From assembly GCA_003696765.1 (NCBI GenBank), contig RFFX01000040.1, forward strand, positions 1 to 62,092: DNA of 62,092 nt, read 5' to 3'. Positions 12,120-61,997 of the stretch are shown here, one piece after another; positions within the stretch are counted from its first letter, which is position 1; each line of letters begins with the position of its first letter. The stretch is from Zetaproteobacteria bacterium (GTDB lineage: Bacteria; Pseudomonadota; Zetaproteobacteria; Mariprofundales; J009). Below the pieces are notes generated by a model that saw nothing but the letters and a program-made list of their open reading frames with translations, did no database searches and was not told the DNA's origin. Position numbers and translations under genes: made by a program.

Positions 12120-12125
12120 ATCGGA

Positions 12126-12169
12126 ACACGTCCACGGACGGACGCGGACGGTTTTTTGCGATTCGATCG
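12126..12169 (+). repeat. FDTGH repeat family, partial copy (degenerate H module)
   Basis: ACGTCCACGGACGGACG...TTTTTTGCGATTCGATCG, 3' of the Lpt permease gene. Confidence 0.6.
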
Positions 12170-13349: not shown

Positions 13350-13877
13350 CTACAGCGCGTTCAGGTTCTGCCGTGCCACCTGGTAGTCGGGATCGATGCG
13401 CAGCGCCTGCTCCAGTTCGGCACGGGCGCGGTCGCGGTCGTAGGGGCGGTTGCGTTGGTAGTAGGCGACGCCGAGGTCGTTGTGGTAGAGGGCGCTGCCG
13501 GTACAGAGGCGGACGCTGTTCTGCAGCAGGTAGACCTTCCGTTCGATATCGCGTGTCTTGAGCGCGGCGTTGTATTGCCGTTCGGCGGCGGCGCAATCGT
13601 CGAAGCTGCGCGGCGCGGCCTGCGCCGGCGGCCGGGCGTTGCCCTTGCCGATCTGCTTGCCCAGCAGGTAACCGCCCAGGGCGCCGATGATCGCGCCCTG
13701 ACCTGCGCCGCCGCGGCGGTTGACCTGATGGCCGATGACCGCACCGGCACCGGCGCCGATCAGGGCGCCGAGCACGCCGCTGTCGGCCGCCGTCGCCGGC
13801 GCGGGCAGGGAGGGCAGGGCGAAGAGCGCCAGCACGGCGGCGGCGATGCGTGGGAGGATGGGGACAGAATCCGTCAT
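13350..13877 (-). CDS. secreted glycine-zipper plus TPR-like protein
   Basis: 175 aa. Signal-like AAAVLALFALPSLPAPATA, glycine zipper GALIGAGAGAVIG...GAIIGALGGYLLG, and a TPR-like tail (YHNDLGVAYYQRN...ALRIDPDY). Confidence 0.6.
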   Translation of the reverse strand: MTDSVPILPRIAAAVLALFALPSLPAPATAADSGVLGALIGAGAGAVIGHQVNRRGGAGQGAIIGALGGYLLGKQIGKGNARPPAQAAPRSFDDCAAAERQYNAALKTRDIERKVYLLQNSVRLCTGSALYHNDLGVAYYQRNRPYDRDRARAELEQALRIDPDYQVARQNLNAL

Positions 13878-13908
13878 GATCGAGTCGCAAAACGTCCGTC
13901 CATGGAGC
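13878..13908 (-). repeat. FDTGH repeat family, partial copy (half H module)
   Basis: The minus strand reads CTCCATGGACGGACGTTTTGCGACTCGATC, directly followed by the ATG of the glycine-zipper gene. Confidence 0.6.
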
Positions 13909-14133
13909 CTGCAGCATCACGGTGGATCGAGGCGTCTGCTCGACCCCTTCGGATCTGGCGGCCGCGGCTGCGGCCGCAGGCCCGGCACGCTGTACCGCAG
14001 CCTCCTTGCAGCGGCGTGGCCGGACGCAGGGGAATGGTCCCACGGGTCCGTGCCGCTGTCAACCGGATGCCGCCCCTCCGACCGGGGGCGGCGCGCCATT
14101 CTCAGGTCCCTTCGGCCCGGCTAGCATTGGGCG

Positions 14134-15072
14134 GTGGTGATCGACCCCGAAGAGACGGCGCATCTTCCGCCGCCGGGTGTTCCCGGCTGGTGGGCCGCCC
14201 GCAGTTGGCGGCAGCGGCTCAACGTGATGCTGTTCGATTTCACCTGCCGTATCGGGCGGATCGTCAACTACACCATCGGAGTCTTCATCCTCTCGGCGGT
14301 GCTGATCTCGATGACCGACTCGGTGCCCTACTACCACGACCACTACGCCCGGCCGTTGGGGCTGTTCGAGGATCTGGTCACCTTCGTCTTCGCCGTGGAG
14401 TATCTCCTGCGGGTCTACTCCGCCCGGCGCCCCTTCACCTACATCTTCAGCTTCAACGGCATCGTCGATCTCACCGCCGTCCTGCCGCTGCTGATCGGCG
14501 AGGACTCGACGCTGGTGATCCGGCTGCTGCGTGTGGTCCGCCTGATCAAGCTGACCAGCTATCTGCCGGCGCTGACCGCCCTCTTCCGCTCGCTCACCGA
14601 CGTGGTGCATCTGATGCTGGCGGTGCTCTCGGTCATCATCCTGATGTCGCTCTTCGCCGGCAACCTGATCTACATCGTCGAGCCGGAGACCTTCCATACC
14701 GCCTTCGAGGGGGCGTGGTGGAGCCTCGTGACCATGAGCACGGTGGGGTATGGCGATCTCTACCCCACCACGGCGGCGGGGCGTCTGATCGCGGTGGCGG
14801 TGATCCTCTCGGGCATCACCATGTTCGCCATGGCCACGGCGGTGGTCTCCGTCCGGGTCGGGCGCCACCTCTACGAGCAGATCCACTGCCCCGCCTGCAA
14901 CCACAGCGTGGCCGAGGATCACATCTACTGCCCGCATTGCGGCATCAGGCTGGAGATCGGTGATCCGGTCGATGAGAAGCCCGATTTCCATCGACGGGAC
15001 AGAGGGGTTGAGGCGGCCGCCGGTCGGGCGGAGGCTCCGCGGGGGGAGGCAACGCAATCGGATCGGAAATGA
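14134..15072 (+). CDS. voltage-gated-type (6TM) potassium channel with C-terminal zinc ribbon
   Basis: S4-like RLLRVVRLIKLTSY, selectivity filter TVGYGDLYP, and C-terminal CPACN...CPHCG. GTG start. The TGA lies inside repeat module F. Confidence 0.85.
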   Translation: MVIDPEETAHLPPPGVPGWWAARSWRQRLNVMLFDFTCRIGRIVNYTIGVFILSAVLISMTDSVPYYHDHYARPLGLFEDLVTFVFAVEYLLRVYSARRPFTYIFSFNGIVDLTAVLPLLIGEDSTLVIRLLRVVRLIKLTSYLPALTALFRSLTDVVHLMLAVLSVIILMSLFAGNLIYIVEPETFHTAFEGAWWSLVTMSTVGYGDLYPTTAAGRLIAVAVILSGITMFAMATAVVSVRVGRHLYEQIHCPACNHSVAEDHIYCPHCGIRLEIGDPVDEKPDFHRRDRGVEAAAGRAEAPRGEATQSDRK

Positions 15073-15228
15073 CGACTTCGCAAGAAGTCGGCATCCGCGA
15101 CCAGGATGGTCGCGCAAATCCGGAGGTTGCGCATGCAAGCGACGGATTTGTAAGGCGATCGAAGAGCGCGCTCTTCGATCGCCGTCAAGCAAAAAGTCCA
15201 CGGACGGACTTTTTGCGATTCGATCAGG
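15069..15228 (+). repeat. FDTGH repeat family, full copy (reference copy)
   Basis: Modules in order: ATGACGACTTCGCAAGAAGTCGGCAT / CGCGACCAGGATGGTCGCG / CAAATCCGGAGGTTGCGCATGCAAGCGACGGATTTG / GGCGATCGAAGAGCGCGCTCTTCGATCGCC / CAAGCAAAAAGTCCACGGACGGACTTTTTGCGATTCGATC. Confidence 0.9.
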
Positions 15229-15390
15229 AGTGATGGTTTCGCAAGAAAGCATCATCGCGGCCAGGACGGCCGCGCAAATCCGAAGCTTGCGCATGCAAGC
15301 GACGGATTTGTAAGGGGATCGAAGACCGCGCTCTTCGATCCCCGTCAAGCAAAAAGTCCACGGATGGACTTTTTGCGGTTCCATTAGGAG
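15229..15390 (+). repeat. FDTGH repeat family, full copy (head-to-tail with previous)
   Basis: All five modules are present. The copy ends TTAGGAG, 12 nt before the guaB ATG. Confidence 0.9.
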
Positions 15391-23551: not shown

Positions 23552-24517
23552 CTACTGGGGGGCGCGCTCCAGCAGCCGCCGGATGCCGGTGGGAAGGGCG
23601 ACCTCGTCCGGGTGGACCCACCGCCCCGGGGGATCGGGCGGAGCATCGGTGCAGAGGAGATAGAGGTGGAGCCGGCGGTGGGTGAGGCGGTGGAGCAGGT
23701 CGGGGCGGCGATCCGCCGTCGGTGTGATCGGCTCGATCGGCGGTGTCCACATGCCGCCCCAGATCGCATCCGCCGGGCGCCGCACCATCCAGATGCCGCG
23801 CTCGGGATGGCGGTGGATGGAAACGCGCCAGTGCAGATCGCGCACGGCCGCTCCAGCCCGCGCCGGCGCGGGCTGGAGCGGCCGGTCGGCGCCGGCGCAA
23901 ACGGGCCGCAGCGGGCAGGCGCCGCAGGCGGCGGTGCGCGCCCGGCAGAGGGTGGCGCCGAGCTCCATCATCGCCTGGTTCCACTCGGCGGGGTCGGGCG
24001 CGCGCCCGATGGCATGTGAGGCCAGCCGCCACAACGTGCTGTCTGCGGCCGTTGCGGCATCATGCCAGCGGGTCAGCACCCGGCGTACGTTGGCGTCGAG
24101 CACCGGCCGGCGTTGTCCGAAGCAGATCGAGGCGATGGCGCCGGCGGTGGAGCGACCGATGCCGGGCAGGGCGAGGATCTCGGCGAACGCTTCGGGGAAG
24201 CGCCCGTGATGGCGCTGCATGATCTGCCCGGCCGCGGCGTGGAGCAGCCGCGCCCGCCGGTAGTAGCCCAGCCCCTGCCACGCCTTGAGCACCTCCGCCT
24301 CGTCGGCGGCGGCCAGCGTCGGTAGGTCGGGAAACCGCGCCAGCCAGGTATCGAAGCGGGGCAGCACGGTGGCCACCTGGGTCTGCTGCAGCATGACCTC
24401 GGAGATCCAGATGCGGTAGGGGTCGCGGGTGCGGCGCCACGGCAGGTCGCGTCGGTGGCGGCGGTACCACGCCGGCAGCGCCGTCTCCGGATCGGTGTCG
24501 TATTGATCAGAGTGCAA
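23552..24517 (-). CDS. mutY: A/G-specific adenine DNA glycosylase
   Basis: HhH-GPD (LPGIGRSTAGAI) and Fe-S cluster cysteines (CRARTAACGACPLRPVC). The start is ambiguous: either TTG 24517 (5 nt after GGAGG, inside an H repeat module) or GTG 24556 (GTGA overlap with the upstream stop). Confidence 0.88.
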   Translation of the reverse strand: MHSDQYDTDPETALPAWYRRHRRDLPWRRTRDPYRIWISEVMLQQTQVATVLPRFDTWLARFPDLPTLAAADEAEVLKAWQGLGYYRRARLLHAAAGQIMQRHHGRFPEAFAEILALPGIGRSTAGAIASICFGQRRPVLDANVRRVLTRWHDAATAADSTLWRLASHAIGRAPDPAEWNQAMMELGATLCRARTAACGACPLRPVCAGADRPLQPAPARAGAAVRDLHWRVSIHRHPERGIWMVRRPADAIWGGMWTPPIEPITPTADRRPDLLHRLTHRRLHLYLLCTDAPPDPPGRWVHPDEVALPTGIRRLLERAPQ

Positions 24518-24549
24518 AACGTCCCTCCATGGACGTGTTGCGATTCGAA
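24514..24549 (+). repeat. FDTGH repeat family, solo H module (antisense to flanking genes)
   Basis: GCAAAACGTCCCTCCATGGACGTGTTGCGATTCGAA. Confidence 0.75.
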
Positions 24550-28495: not shown

Positions 28496-28504
28496 CTGCT
28501 ACCT

Positions 28505-28590
28505 GATCGCAACAAGTCCGTCCATGGACTTTCCGGCCGCACGGGAATCGAAGAGCGCGGCCTTCACTGTTGAGCGAAGCCCCGATCAGC
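28505..28590 (-). repeat. FDTGH repeat family, degenerate partial copy (H, G, possibly F remnants)
   Basis: GATCGCAACAAGTCCGTCCATGGACTTTCC...GGGAATCGAAGAGCGCGGCCTTC...GAGCGAAGCC. Confidence 0.55.
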
Positions 28591-29893: not shown

Positions 29894-29921
29894 CGGTCGG
29901 GTTTCCTTTCCTCGGAGTGTT

Positions 29922-30079
29922 GATGGAATCGCAAAAAGTCCGTCCGTGGACTCTTTGGCTGTACGGCGATCGAAGAGCACGCTCTTCGATCCTCTTACAA
30001 ATCAATCACTTGCTTACGCAGGCTCTTGATTTGCGCGGCCGTCCATGGTCGCGATGATGGCTTCTTGCGAAGCCGTCAT
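29922..30079 (-). repeat. FDTGH repeat family, full copy
   Basis: Reverse complement of all five modules. The T outer stem reads CAAATCAA/TTGATTTG. The F end contains the stop of the lipoprotein gene. Confidence 0.88.
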
Positions 30080-40186: not shown

Positions 40187-40260
40187 CGATCCTGCCGCCT
40201 GTGCTCTTCGATCTCCGTCGAGCAAAAAGTCCACGGACGGACTTTTTGCGATTCGATCAG
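40187..40260 (+). repeat. FDTGH repeat family, partial copy (degenerate G plus H)
   Basis: CGATCC...GCTCTTCGATCT...GAGCAAAAAGTCCACGGACGGACTTTTTGCGATTCGATC. Confidence 0.75.
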
Positions 40261-40262
40261 CA

Positions 40263-40422
40263 ATGACGGCTTCGCAAGAAGCCGGCAGCAGCGGCCAGGA
40301 CGGCCGCGCAAATCCGGAGGTTGCGCATGCAAGCGACGGATTATGTAAGGCGATCGAAAACCGCGTTTTTCGATCGCCTTCAAGCAAAAAGTCCACGGAC
40401 GGACTTTTTGCGATCCCATCAG
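40263..40422 (+). repeat. FDTGH repeat family, full copy
   Basis: All five modules. The G arms read CGATCGAAAACCG/CGTTTTTCGATCG. Confidence 0.9.
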
Positions 40423-40423
40423 C

Positions 40424-40460
40424 AATACGGTCCATGGAGGGACGGTTTGCGATTCGATCG
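40424..40460 (+). repeat. FDTGH repeat family, solo H-like module
   Basis: ATACGGTCCATGGAGGGACGGTTTGCGATTCGATCG, ending 4 nt before the leuD ATG. Confidence 0.65.
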
Positions 40461-40463
40461 AAC

Positions 40464-41111
40464 ATGCAGCCGTTCACCGTTCATGAGGGGTTGGTGGCGC
40501 CGATGGATCGGGCCAATGTCGATACCGACGCCATCATCCCCAAGCAGTTCCTCAAATCGATCCGCCGCAGCGGATACGGCGCCTATCTGTTCGACGAGTG
40601 GCGCTATCTCGATCAGGGCGAGCCGGGGATGGATTGCAGCAAACGGCCGAAGAATCCCGACTTTGTGCTCAATCAGCCGCGCTATCGGGGGGCGACGATC
40701 CTGTTGGCGCGGGAGAACTTCGGCTGCGGTTCGTCGCGCGAGCATGCGCCGTGGGCGCTGCTCGACTACGGCTTCCGCTGCATCATCGCTCCCTCCTTCG
40801 CCGATATCTTCTACGACAACTGCTGCAAGAACGGCATCCTGCCGCTGACCCAGCCGGCGGAGGTGGTCGACCGCCTCTTTGCCGAGTGCGCAGCGCAGGA
40901 GGGCTACCGGCTGCGGGTCGATCTGCCGGCCCAGCGGTTGACCCTCCCCGATGGAACGACCTTTGCCTTCGGGATCGATCCCTTCCGCAAGCGGCGGCTG
41001 GTCGAGGGGCTGGACGACATCGCTCTGACGCTGGAGCACGCCGATGAGATCCGTGCCTTCGAGCGGCGCCACTTCGCTGCCCATCCGTGGCTGGTGGAAG
41101 CCGCCGCTTGA
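40464..41111 (+). CDS. leuD: 3-isopropylmalate dehydratase small subunit
   Basis: ATG 40464. [14 protein letters not shown] and [17 protein letters not shown]. Confidence 0.93.
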
Positions 41112-45382: not shown

Positions 45383-45390
<8 letters not shown>

Positions 45391-46033
45391 TTCCACACCC
45401 ATCCGCATCGCGCTGCCCAAGGGGCGGCTGCTGGGGCAGGTGGTGCCGTTGCTCGAAGCGGCGGGGCTGGCCCCCGACGGAGAGGGGATCCGCAGCCGCA
45501 GGTTGATCCTCCCCGGGCCGGAGGGGTACTGCTTCCTCATCATCCGGGCGGCCGACGTCTGCACCTTCGTCGCCCGCGGAGCCGCCGATCTGGGCATCGT
45601 CGGCCGTGACCTGCTGCTCGAGAGCGACCCCGATCTCCATCAGCCGCTCGATCTGGGGATCGGCCGCTGCCGGCTCTGCGTGGCGGTGCCCGAGCATGGC
45701 GGGGATCCGCTGGCCCGGCCTCCTGGCAGCGTGGTACGTGTGGCGACCAAGTACGACCGGCTGGCAGCCGGCTTCTTCATGCAGCGCGGCCTGCAGGCGG
45801 AGATCATCCACCTCTACGGCTCGATGGAGCTGGCGCCGCTGGTCGGGATGGCCGACTGCATCGTCGATCTGGTCGAGACCGGCTCCACGCTGCGGGCCAA
45901 CGGCCTGGTCGAGCGGGCGACGCTGTTCGAGATCTCCAGCCGGCTGGTGGTCAATCCGGTCAGTGCGGTGCTGCGGCGGGCGGAGATCGAGCCGGTTATC
46001 GACCGTCTGCGCCGATGCGTGGAGCAATGGTGA
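45383..46033 (+). CDS. hisG: ATP phosphoribosyltransferase (short form)
   Basis: 216 aa. IALPKGRL and LVETGSTLRANGL. The TTG start overlaps the murA end. The TGA lies in repeat module F. Confidence 0.93.
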
Positions 46034-46185
46034 CGGCTTCGCAGGAAGCCGTCAGCGCGGCCATGGGTGGTCGCGAAATCCGGAGGCTGCAGAGGCAAGC
46101 GACGGATTTAGTAGGGGGATCGAAGAGCGCGCACTTCGATCCCCGTCAAGCAAAAGTCCACGGGCGGACTCTTTGCGATTCGATC
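46030..46185 (+). repeat. FDTGH repeat family, full copy
   Basis: All five modules. F starts GTGACGG and contains the hisG TGA. Confidence 0.88.
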
Positions 46186-46219
46186 AACGCTGACGGGCAA
46201 CTTTCGTAAGGATAGGCGT

Positions 46220-48591: not shown

Positions 48592-48750
48592 GTGATGGTT
48601 TCGCGAGAACCCATCATCGCGGCGTCGGCGTGCCGCGTAAAACCGAAGCTTGCGAATGCAAGCGACGGCTTTGGAAGGGAATCAAAGAGCGCGCTCTTCG
48701 ATTCTCGTCAAGCAAAAGGTCCATGGACGGACGTTTTGCGATTCGATCCG
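48592..48750 (+). repeat. FDTGH repeat family, full copy (diverged)
   Basis: All five modules. The F loop is GCGA. The copy ends 4 nt before the hisB ATG. Confidence 0.85.
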
Positions 48751-49349: not shown

Positions 49350-49390
49350 CCGTGGCGGCGTTCAAGTACACTGGCGAAACGAACGGAGGT

Positions 49391-49551
49391 ATGATGGTTT
49401 CGCAAGCAGCCATCATACGCGACCAGGACGGTCGCGCAAATCCGGAGGTTGCTCTTGCAACCGATGGATTTGTAAGGCAATCGAAGACCGCGCTCTTCGA
49501 TTGCCGCCGAGCAAAAAGTCCATGGACGGACTTTTTGCGGTGTGATCAGGA
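49391..49551 (+). repeat. FDTGH repeat family, full copy
   Basis: All five modules. The G arms read CAATCG/CGATTG. The 3' tail GATCAGGAG supplies an SD-like sequence for the next ORF. Confidence 0.9.
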
Positions 49552-49557
49552 GTGGCG

Positions 49558-49884
49558 ATGAAGGTCAACAATGCGAACCTTGCAGCGCTGAGCAACATCA
49601 CGGTCCAGCAGGAGGTTTCGGCCAACAATGTCGCCAACCTGCTGACCCGGGGCTATCGGGCTGCGCGGGCGCTGCAGCAGGGGGACCGGGTGACGGTCAG
49701 CCCGGAGATGCGCGCCGCGATCCAGCGCAACGAAGCGGCCAGCAGCGCCGCTCCGTCGCCCAGCGATGCCGCGACCGAGCAGGTCCGTATGCGGCGCAAT
49801 GAGGCGGCTTATACCGCCAACCTCAATGCCATCAAGACCCGCGATGCCCTCTACAAGGCGCTGGATGATTTGAACAAGGGGTGA
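49558..49884 (+). CDS. small flagellar basal-body rod-like protein (FlgB/FlgC-type termini)
   Basis: 108 aa. ATG 49558 lies 5 nt after GGAG. N-terminal SANNVANLLTRGY fits the rod signature N-[LIVM]-[SA]-N-x2-T-x-G-[FY] with one mismatch. C-terminal EQVRMRRNEAAYTANLNAIKTRDALYKALDDL resembles the rod C-terminal motif. Confidence 0.55.
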   Translation: MKVNNANLAALSNITVQQEVSANNVANLLTRGYRAARALQQGDRVTVSPEMRAAIQRNEAASSAAPSPSDAATEQVRMRRNEAAYTANLNAIKTRDALYKALDDLNKG

Positions 49885-54918: not shown

Positions 54919-54957
54919 GAGTCGGCCGGAAGGAGAGTCGGCCGGAAGGAGAGAGTC
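54919..54957. repeat. 16-nt tandem repeat (2 perfect units plus a partial unit) between phoU and hemJ
   Basis: GAGTCGGCCGGAAGGA occurs twice, then GAGAGTC, running into the hemJ stop. Confidence 0.85.
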
Positions 54958-55381
54958 AGAAGGGGCGCACCACCACCAACACCACCGCCAGGATCAGCCC
55001 GAGCGTCGGCAGTTCGTTGTAGATGCGGAAGAAGCGCTCGCTGTGGGGCGGTGCGCCCCGGGCGAAGCCGGTCGTCATCCGACCGCAGTGCAGATGGAAG
55101 ACGATCAGCCCCAGCACCACCGCCATCTTGGCGTGGAACCAGCCCGCATCCACCAGCCACGCCCAGTTCATCGACGCCATGGTGGCGCCGCAGATCAGGG
55201 TGATCACCATCGCAGGCCACATGATGAAGCGGTGGAGCCTGCGTTCCATGATGCAGAACTGCTCGTGCAACACCCCTTCGGGGTGGCGGCTGTGGTAGAC
55301 GAAGAGGCGCGGCAGATAGAAGAGGCCGGCGAACCAGGCCACCAGCGCGATGATGTGCAGCGCCTTGATCCAGAGATACAT
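54956..55381 (-). CDS. hemJ: protoporphyrinogen IX oxidase HemJ (UPF0093 family)
   Basis: 141 aa, 4 TM segments. LHIIALVAWFAGLFYLPRLFVYH...FHAKM. Confidence 0.8.
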   Translation of the reverse strand: MYLWIKALHIIALVAWFAGLFYLPRLFVYHSRHPEGVLHEQFCIMERRLHRFIMWPAMVITLICGATMASMNWAWLVDAGWFHAKMAVVLGLIVFHLHCGRMTTGFARGAPPHSERFFRIYNELPTLGLILAVVLVVVRPF

Positions 55382-55384
55382 ATT

Positions 55385-55540
55385 GTTCGACCGCAAAACG
55401 TCCGTCCGTGGACGTTTTGCTTGACGGGGATCGAAGAGCGCGGTCTTCGATCCCCTTACAAATCCGTCGGTTGCATCTGCCACCTCCGGATTTGCGCGGC
55501 CGTCCATGGCCGCGATGCTGGTTTCTTGCGAAGCCAGCAT
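55385..55540 (-). repeat. FDTGH repeat family, full copy
   Basis: Reverse complement of all five modules. H reads AAAACGTCC/GGACGTTTT. Confidence 0.9.
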
Positions 55541-55698
55541 CGATTCGACCGCAAAACGTCCGTCCGTGGACGTTTTGGCTTCACGGGGATCGAAGAGCGC
55601 GGTCTTAGATCCCCTTACAAATCCGTCGGTTGCGTCTGCAACCTCCGGATTCGCGCGGCCGTCCTGGTCGCGATGTCGGCTCCGCAGGCGGCCGTCAT
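55541..55698 (-). repeat. FDTGH repeat family, full copy (head-to-tail with previous)
   Basis: Reverse complement of all five modules, with F degenerate. The F end contains the stop of the CcsA-family gene. Confidence 0.85.
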
Positions 55699-56557: not shown

Positions 56558-56716
56558 GATGACGGCTTCGCAAGAAGGTGGCATCCGCGGCGTTGGCGTG
56601 CCGCGCAAATCAAGAGCTTGCGAAGCAAGCGATCGATTTGTAGGGCAATCGAAGAGCGCGCTCTTCGATTGCCTTCAAGCAAAACGTCCATGGACGGACG
56701 TTTTGCGATTCGATTG
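56558..56716 (+). repeat. FDTGH repeat family, full copy (antisense to flanking genes)
   Basis: All five modules on the plus strand, between two minus-strand genes. Confidence 0.88.
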
Positions 56717-61690: not shown

Positions 61691-61800
61691 TCCTCCTCCC
61701 GGGGTGGAGATTCCTGCCACGGTGGGACGGGCGGTTCGGTGGAGCACCCACGAGGACAGGGTGGGGCATGATACCATGCCCCCGCGCGCCGCTCAATGGT

Positions 61801-61912
61801 GATCAAACCGCAAAACGTCCGTCCGTGGACTTTTTGCTTGACGGCGATCGAAGAACGCGCTCTTCGACCCCCTTACGAATGCACCGATTGCATGCGCAAT
61901 CCCCTGTTTTGT
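61801..61912 (-). repeat. FDTGH repeat family, partial copy (H, G, degenerate T)
   Basis: GATCAAACCGCAAAACGTCCGTCCGTGGACTTTTTGCTTGACGG / CGATCGAAGAACGCGCTCTTCGACC / CCTTACGAATGCACCGATTGCATGCGCAAT. Confidence 0.75.
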
Positions 61913-61997
61913 ACAACCGGACGGGATGGCACGTATTGGGAGTACGGGGCGGACCGGTGCAGCATGGTGGGTCCCCTTCGCGGTTGGGGGTGCGCTT

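Follow-up and report, generated by a model that had tools for sequence, protein, structure and literature searches.

A miniature transposable element in a zetaproteobacterial genome that is mostly co-oriented with its neighboring genes, most strictly at start codons

Results

Structure of the repeat copy

The window analyzed here is the whole of contig RFFX01000040.1 (62,092 nt) of a Zetaproteobacteria bacterium (assembly GCA_003696765.1); it is contig C36 among the 94 contigs of a 1.81-Mb genome with 68.6% G+C and 98.3% completeness. Positions 49391-49551 hold one full copy, about 160 nt long, of a repeat made of five consecutive hairpins, designated F, D, T, G, and H. Taking F to H as the direction of the element, this focal copy is sense both to hisB, which lies upstream, and to a rod-protein-like gene, which lies downstream. 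The repeat is a mobile element present in hundreds of copies, and the direction in which its copies face their neighboring genes is the main subject of this study.

The core of the focal copy (GATGG...GATC, 155 nt) spans 49393-49547 on the + strand and matches positions 1-157 of the profile hidden Markov model (HMM) with 165.7 bits in nhmmer. It is enclosed by the two copies of a 6-bp target-site duplication, AGGTAT at 49387-49392 (register taken from the duplication analysis) and AGGAGT at 49548-49553 (taken from the sequence and the register); the left copy has decayed and agrees with the right one at 4 of 6 bases. The left terminal inverted repeat (TIR), of the form TGA-N5-TCGCAA-RAAG, occupies 49392-49409 (+) and includes the F loop; it was delimited from the consensus, the variability of alignment columns, and the TIRs of other lineages. 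The right TIR occupies 49531-49548 and reads TGATCACACCGCAAAAAG as the reverse complement (- strand), again in agreement with the consensus and the other lineages. In the predicted fold of the + strand, hairpin F (49389-49418) carries the tetraloop GCAA at 49402-49405, hairpin D (49419-49435) the loop AGGAC, and hairpin H (49511-49538) the loop AUGGAC, with hairpins T (49436-49473) and G (49476-49505) between D and H; about 10 unpaired bases follow H up to the element end. The predicted energy is -88.3 kcal/mol for the + strand versus -78.1 kcal/mol for the - strand, with a z-score of about -7.7 on both strands relative to shuffled sequence. The ATG of the downstream gene (open reading frame 49552/49558-49884) lies at 49558-49560, 10 nt past the element core. 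No Rfam family matched at its gathering score anywhere in the window, and the single match with E<1 was a chance miRNA hit (16.6 bits).

Census and identification as a mobile element

Iterated nhmmer searches over the genome gave 639 raw matches, corresponding to 425 non-overlapping copies with a summed length of 48.8 kb, or 2.7% of the genome; 191 copies are essentially full length. The repeat is therefore a short (~155 bp), non-coding sequence dispersed in many copies. Among 96 solitary full copies, the five variable nucleotides of the flanking duplication match at 5/5 positions in 34, compared with 1% of shuffled pairs. The position-by-position identity profile defines a duplication of 6 bp with the consensus A-NNN-A-T (that is, the form A-NNNN-T), often flanked by TC...GA, and the same 6-bp register was found in four other genomes. 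The element proper starts with GA and ends with TC, and the initial GA is kept even where the flank has no GA continuation. An alternative duplication of 8 bp ending in ATGA was rejected, as antisense copies and the copies of other genomes assign the GA to the element. Imperfect TIRs of about 18 bp (TGA-N5-TCGCAA-RAAG) are present at both ends in seven genomes, with identity at 13/18 positions in the consensus of this genome and at up to 18/20 in another lineage. Moreover, four orthologous junctions that are filled in a sister genome are empty here, and the copies are recent insertions at non-orthologous sites. Head-to-tail arrays have a period of 160 nt, which equals one element plus one shared duplication.

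Because of these TIRs, 6-bp target duplications, and empty orthologous sites, the repeat is a MITE (miniature inverted-repeat transposable element), a non-autonomous transposable element. A reading made from the letters of the window without database searches (hereafter the sequence-only reading) had argued against a purely DNA-level palindrome; the same three lines of evidence do not support that argument, since they assign the palindromes to a mobile DNA element. Membership in the REP/BIME/REPIN class (20-40 bp palindromes with no duplication) was rejected on account of the 155-bp unit, five hairpins, 6-bp duplications, and TIRs, and an IS200/IS605-type identity was rejected on account of the duplications and of an element strand that flips with gene blocks inside contigs.

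The search for an autonomous partner, confined to this genome, revealed no pair of F end and H end enclosing a transposase. The lone 2.4-kb candidate encloses secE-nusG-rplK-rplA and no transposase. At this locus (L108, contig C32, 54890-57396), two + strand fragments, a left part covering positions 2-104 and a solo H, bracket secE-nusG-rplK-rplA on the - strand, so that antisense pieces lie at both edges of a highly expressed operon. No sigma-70-like promoter was found in 18 kb of the window covering seven full copies, and a scan of the consensus for intrinsic terminators flagged neither strand more than the other; hairpins H and T are both nearly palindromic, with flanking runs of A and U in either direction. 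A literature search found no described MITE of Zetaproteobacteria.

Orientation relative to neighboring genes

The genome came without annotation; a self-trained codon log-odds model was used to call genes, yielding 1656 that occupy 90% of the genome. Of the copies lying between co-directional genes, 251 are sense and 57 antisense. When each spacer is scored a single time, 203 spacers hold sense copies only, 42 antisense copies only, and 7 both (binomial p=1.7e-26). The element thus really does point the same way as its neighboring genes about five times out of six, and the orientation bias that the sequence-only reading had noticed in the window extends to the whole genome instead of approaching 50:50. 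In contigs such as C36, C46, C28, and C73, copies occur on both strands, and each copy tracks the local gene block. Since the element strand flips with these blocks within contigs, the bias follows transcription and not the direction of replication.

The bias depends on the distance from the element (or array) to the downstream start codon (Fisher p=7e-7). Where this start lies within 12 nt, 112 spacers are sense and 4 antisense (28:1); at 13-40 nt the numbers are 34 and 15, and beyond 40 nt they are 57 and 23. The bias is therefore composed of two components, one of about 2.4:1 away from start codons and one of 28:1 at an abutting start. Seen from the element ends, an in-frame open start codon occurs within 11 nt of the H end in 156/255 cases, mostly at offsets 4 and 0, versus 4/53 for the F end (p=9e-14). 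Stop-codon abutment is far less asymmetric (65/150 versus 18/63), and the counts are 4 versus 3 in convergent spacers, where a downstream start is lacking. The median residual gap is 89 nt at antisense copies and 44 nt at sense copies (p=8e-5).

The bias does not grow with the age of the copies (40:8, 39:9, and 38:11 in successive classes), which places its origin at insertion or right after it; slow purging, under which the bias would rise with age, was rejected for this reason. We also counted the placements that the target offers in empty junctions. The ANNNAT core allows 334 sense and 316 antisense permissive placements, and the core with either half-site (TC or GA) allows 70 and 65 overall and 22 and 22 in tight junctions. 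Antisense copies use the mirror half-site: TC precedes the left duplication in 73-82% of them, and GA follows the right one in only 45%. As placements are symmetric and the mirror half-site is used, target availability does not explain the strong component of the bias.

Insertion at stop/start junctions

In 58/131 sense copies, the first bases of the element complete the TGA stop codon of the upstream gene. The insertion rebuilds this stop, with T coming from the duplication and GA from the element, because the element ends read GA...TC; the downstream ATG is kept by the duplicated target. The offsets of 4 and 0 at the start codon correspond, at a 4-nt ATGA overlap, to the two placements of the 6-bp A....T duplication that spare both codons. 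Such 4-nt overlaps make up 245/1053 of the element-free co-directional junctions, and the gene order as a whole is unusually co-directional (1340/1562 adjacent pairs, 86%). This co-directional gene order rich in ATGA overlaps is the niche that the element exploits.

About 156 genes (~9% of the total) start within 11 nt of an H end. A Shine-Dalgarno-like motif at -20 to -4 is found in 11% of the element-abutting genes versus 47% of ordinary genes, and the native ribosome-binding site is displaced by the insertion.

The F loop and RNA-level selection

The sequence-only reading had cited the GNRA tetraloop of hairpin F, which is present on the sense strand only. Across 186 full copies, the F loop reads GCAA in 124 and conforms to GNRA in 137. 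The GCAA corresponds to positions 11-14 of the left inverted repeat, inside the conserved box TCGCAA, and the right end has the same box in inverted form; there it builds the foot of hairpin H instead of a loop. In two related copies (G030 and one G011 copy), the box reads TCGTAA at both ends, a match that a shared protein-binding site would be expected to produce. Single-base variants of the loop break GNRA in 18 cases and keep it in 11, which is about the expectation for neutral decay. In some lineages, the loop is closed by a C.A mismatch. According to the energy model, GCAA is only 0.9 kcal/mol better than UUGC in a hairpin totaling about -17 kcal/mol.

The F loop is inverted in 11 full copies (TCTTGCGA instead of TCGCAAGA, giving UUGC), and the window copy at 55542 has CUGC. 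It seems that the loop flips within an unchanged stem, as from template switching or recombination across the palindrome.

Stem mismatches were examined for strand-specific wobble. The raw counts on the sense strand (481 G.U versus 250 A.C) appear to support selection on RNA, and this support was rejected: one inherited G.T column supplies 153 of the 481, and once this column and the common subfamily-level states are removed, the private mismatches amount to 231 G.U versus 205 A.C (p=0.23), with no sense-strand excess. Private changes are mostly plain and uncompensated (397 non-wobble mismatches), as expected for young, decaying copies. Compensatory differences between subfamilies show that source elements must keep their hairpins, a requirement compatible with a role at the level of DNA no less than with one at the level of RNA.

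The best reading of the GCAA loop is that of a by-product of the inverted-repeat sequence. Given the TIR box, the loop-breaking variants, the flips, the small energy gain, and the absence of wobble asymmetry, the GNRA loop is not evidence of RNA function.

Two further features of the sense strand were observed. The G.T pair of alignment columns 45/82, at the base of hairpin T (about 49436/49473 in the focal copy), is present in 153/191 copies and recurs throughout the other lineages examined; no other strand-specific wobble is conserved, and these two bases may in fact be unpaired. The D and H loops (49425-49429 and 49522-49527 in the focal copy) read A(N)GGA on the sense strand; GGA, found on this strand only, is kept in 174/186 H loops and about 146/186 D loops, with varying neighboring loop bases.

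Copies in other genomes

Hosts of the family include Zetaproteobacteria (several metagenome-assembled genomes (MAGs) of Mariprofundaceae), a MAG labelled Gammaproteobacteria J113, and Desulfurivibrio. Many copies occur only in the present genome and in one MAG of a sister genus, Mariprofundaceae S009_29, with about 68 H hairpins; the other hosts have 1-6 copies. We examined 56 loci of the sister genome, assigning gene strands by homology to the proteins of the present genome. Its spacers comprise 15-18 sense and 11-12 antisense cases, close to parity (p=0.36-0.56) and different from the orientation in the present genome (Fisher p=0.006-0.007). This ratio is compatible with the baseline component of the bias. 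Thus, the same element with the same 6-bp target is not universally sense-oriented, which argues against a conserved sense-strand RNA function. A weaker F hairpin as the cause of this tolerance was rejected, as the energies overlap (-12.7 to -16.5 kcal/mol here and -13 to -14.4 kcal/mol there).

Four loci of the sister genome (L032, L034, L048, and L056) share a rearranged form consisting of HMM positions 75-156, about 65 nt of other sequence, and positions 1-84, which looks like a permuted or composite derivative that itself spread. In the MAG labelled Gammaproteobacteria J113 (RFJX01), a few copies (loci L096 and L100) score 150-165 bits, almost as close to the consensus as the copies of the present genome; either this MAG is a close relative under a wrong label, or the element has undergone recent transfer.

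Copies in the window

By nhmmer, the window contains 17 copies, 10 of which are full. Of these 17, 15 are sense to the adjoining gene or genes, one (56560) is antisense, and one (24504) is ambiguous; gene identities of contested reading frames were taken from Pfam (TonB, MutY-like, CcsA, HolB, Tmk, HisB, and a HisC-like aminotransferase). The first is a weak solo-H fragment (12125-12168, +, E=0.0024) that follows a + gene in a convergent spacer. A partial copy consisting of G and H (13877-13938, -) abuts with its H end the start of the - gene at 13350-13877. The full sense copy at 15070-15226 (+) provides, as its own TGA, the stop codon of the gene at 14224-15072, and a second full sense copy (15231-15384, +) follows it head-to-tail with the period of 160 nt. 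Further sense copies are a partial one at 28504-28565 (-) and a full one at 29921-30078 (-). Three sense copies, one partial, one full (40264-40421), and one solo H, form an array at 40199-40459 (+) that stops 4 nt short of the gene start at 40464.

The full sense copy at 46031-46186 (+) again forms the stop codon of its upstream gene (45383-46033) with its TGA, and the one at 48593-48748 (+) lies 4 nt before the start of hisB (48753). On the - strand, two full sense copies lie close together, one at 55389-55539, whose H end abuts the start of the gene at 54956-55381, and one at 55542-55696. The single clear antisense copy is a full one between holB and ccsA, both on the - strand (56560-56714, +); it lies 41 nt from the start of ccsA and hence does not abut it. 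The last copy, at 61800-61925 (-), is sense and truncated at the 5' side (HMM positions 32-157).

These results bear out most of what the sequence-only reading had reported for the window. It had counted 15 of 17 copies as sense with two exceptions, and the copy it placed at 56558 is indeed antisense; the solo H it placed at 24514 (24504-24542 in nhmmer, between the mutY-like and tonB-like genes, both -) is better described as ambiguous, as the HMM, the loop, and the GATCA tail place it on the - strand, where it would be sense. The F loops of the 10 full copies are GCAA in seven, GCGA in one (48593), GCAG in one (46031), and CUGC in one (55542, where the sense-strand loop is flipped); the former counts for GCAA and GCGA were right, and the second GCAG was the loop at 55542 read on the wrong strand.

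Discussion

The explanation that we prefer, and to which we give an about even chance, is that the sense bias reflects the survivorship of a MITE under the constraints of host mRNA and translation and not a dedicated RNA function. The element has multiplied to 425 copies in a compact genome, largely via stop/start junctions. Under this explanation, which assumes that the operon transcript runs across the element, a copy abutting a start codon would be tolerated only if its H end faces the AUG, while F-end insertions would be removed quickly. The H end is predicted to leave about 13 unpaired bases before the AUG. In the reversed orientation, the start codon would directly adjoin the 10-bp F hairpin (about -16 kcal/mol), which would extend to the element's final base and engage some bases of the duplicated start region in pairing. 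When the cores were flipped in silico, the unpaired probability of positions -12 to +2 fell from 0.47 to 0.33 (p=8e-8). Element-abutting genes should depend more on an open start region because they have lost the usual Shine-Dalgarno motif, and the absence of an age trend fits the immediate removal of bad insertions. As for the baseline of about 2.4:1, it may come from an asymmetric flank preference (core plus GA, 58 versus 16 placements) or equally from weaker transcript-level effects.

Several points weigh against this survivorship explanation. Read-through of the element by transcription is assumed, the gene caller is crude and home-made, and the Pfam check covers the window only. The flipped value of 0.33 is within the interquartile range of ordinary genes (0.29-0.50, mean 0.395), and the flip makes no difference when -18 to +5 is considered. 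The 2.4:1 bias more than 40 nt from starts is not explained by a mechanism acting at the start codon. Enrichment of A at -1, T at 0, and G at +1 is also seen in the offset-0 class, in which these bases are not dictated by the start codon, and this hints at an intrinsically asymmetric target. Finally, in the sister genome, the H end has a predicted start no farther than 15 nt away in 7/24 cases and the F end in 3/11, a similar fraction, and at least one antisense copy directly at a start codon (L016) is tolerated.

Such an asymmetric DNA target, with a transposase preferring 5'-A-NNN-AT|GA-3' relative to the element and the orientation fixed at integration, is a possible alternative, although we hold it to be somewhat unlikely. 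The motif would coincide with ATGA stop/start overlaps, which are present in the gene-sense direction only, and no RNA effect would be needed; the 245 overlaps of 4 nt among 1053 empty co-directional junctions supply such sites. The placements of core plus GA, together with those of ATGA alone (379 versus 123), give a ratio of about 3-3.6:1, near the baseline bias. The lack of an age trend, the A at -1 that is found in 60% of antisense copies too, and the enriched bases of the offset-0 class, which there fall in codons 2-3, agree with this target as well. However, an availability of 3.6:1 cannot yield 28:1 at start codons, both half-sites work, availability is symmetric (70 versus 65) when either is allowed, stop abutment in convergent spacers is 4 versus 3, and the sister genome, with the same target (6-bp A....T with TC/GA flanks), has a ratio of about 15:11. 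A bias of replication strand, arising from single-strand-DNA transposition of the IS200/IS605 or REP-RAYT type and appearing as co-orientation through leading-strand genes, is very improbable. The hairpins are stable as single strands of either sense, and 86% of adjacent gene pairs are co-directional; yet the element strand switches with gene blocks of 10-20 kb within contigs (8+/5- in C36, 11+/13- in C46, and 6+/7- in C28), and 6-bp duplications and TIRs are foreign to IS200/IS605 and REP elements.

The sequence-only reading had proposed function at the RNA level, inside polycistronic mRNAs or 3' untranslated regions. What stands of this proposal is that the bias is real, tracks gene direction, and is strongest at start codons, which points to an effect via the transcript or its translation; a dedicated role marked by the GNRA loop does not stand. 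We regard it as distinctly unlikely that the element serves in operon transcripts or 3' untranslated regions as a stabilizer, a processing site, or a protein-binding cassette, with the GNRA loop of F and the GGA loops of D and H as strand-specific signals and selection keeping the sense copies. Besides the sense bias, such a role would account for the roughly 10 kcal/mol by which the sense strand of the focal copy folds better, the GGA of the H and D loops, the GNRA form of the F loop across lineages (GCAA, GTAA, and GAAA), and the G.T pair at the base of hairpin T that is conserved in all lineages, and it has precedents in the orientation-dependent mRNA effects of ERIC, as summarized in PMC2229807 and PMC3049150, and in bcr1-type repeats transcribed within operons (PMC3446304). 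Private mismatches without wobble asymmetry, mostly uncompensated, tell against it, as do the loop variants (18 breaking, 11 keeping GNRA) and the 11 flipped loops, the 0.9 kcal/mol that GCAA is worth, the recurrence of its box at the other TIR (with GTAA at both ends in related copies), the C.A mismatch closing the loop in several lineages, the lack of an Rfam match in the window, the recent insertion of the copies at non-orthologous sites, and the near parity of orientation in the sister genus.

Beyond the survivorship explanation, the H end might act as a portable translation-initiation region independent of Shine-Dalgarno motifs, or restore translational coupling across the folded element, an idea that we consider rather unlikely. 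If it were true, a MITE could colonize the stop/start overlaps of essential operons in one orientation only. The idea that the terminal GAUC pairs with the tail of the 16S rRNA was dropped, given that both element ends finish in similar bases.

The element behaves, by analogy, like the co-transcribed MITEs of other bacteria, and no sequence similarity to Correia, ERIC, or bcr1 was found. Correia elements (NEMIS/CREE) of Neisseria, the textbook example of high copy number, are co-transcribed and have reported effects on the expression of neighboring genes (PMC3184786). Like the present element, they are MITEs (about 100-160 bp) that possess TIRs, duplicate their target, and adjoin genes in hundreds of copies in a small genome. 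However, they duplicate TA and have one long hairpin, an IHF site, and promoter parts, whereas the present element has a 6-bp A-NNNN-T duplication, five separate hairpins, and no promoter-like site (in 18 kb of the window with seven full copies). ERIC (IRU) sequences of Enterobacteria and Yersinia are likewise MITEs inserted inside operons, and their orientation decides their effect on operon mRNA (De Gregorio 2005, as summarized in PMC2229807 and PMC3049150). The orientation-dependent transcript effect belongs to ERIC, which targets TA and acts through RNase E cleavage of upstream mRNA; the asymmetry of the present element is tied to the downstream start codon (156 versus 4). The bcr1 repeats of the Bacillus cereus group, of about 155 bp, form multiple hairpins kept by compensatory changes and are transcribed in untranslated regions and operons (PMC3184786, PMC3446304). 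The present element shares with them the length, the flanking short direct repeats, and the multiple hairpins, but bcr1 comes from a Gram-positive host, folds into two stem-loops, and has a duplication of 5 bp, and the present element gave no counterpart of the strand-specific RNA evidence claimed for those repeats. Repeats directly upstream of genes are also known as REP2 in Neisseria and as upstream inverted-repeat sequences in Borrelia (PMC3184786); those bring their own promoter, ribosome-binding site, and ATG, whereas the present element brings none of these: the duplicated target supplies the ATG, and the insertion displaces the usual Shine-Dalgarno motif. The distinctive features here are the 6-bp A....T duplication, the five hairpins, the rebuilding of stop codons, and the near-absolute orientation rule at starts.

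This genome offers a countable case of a mobile element saturating a compact genome without breaking its operons. It also illustrates that an orientation bias and a stable loop on one strand, both often cited in favor of RNA function, can come from transposon anatomy plus purifying selection on the host. If it is true that in about one tenth of the genes translation begins at a MITE edge with no Shine-Dalgarno motif, the organism would be a natural test bed for Shine-Dalgarno-independent initiation.

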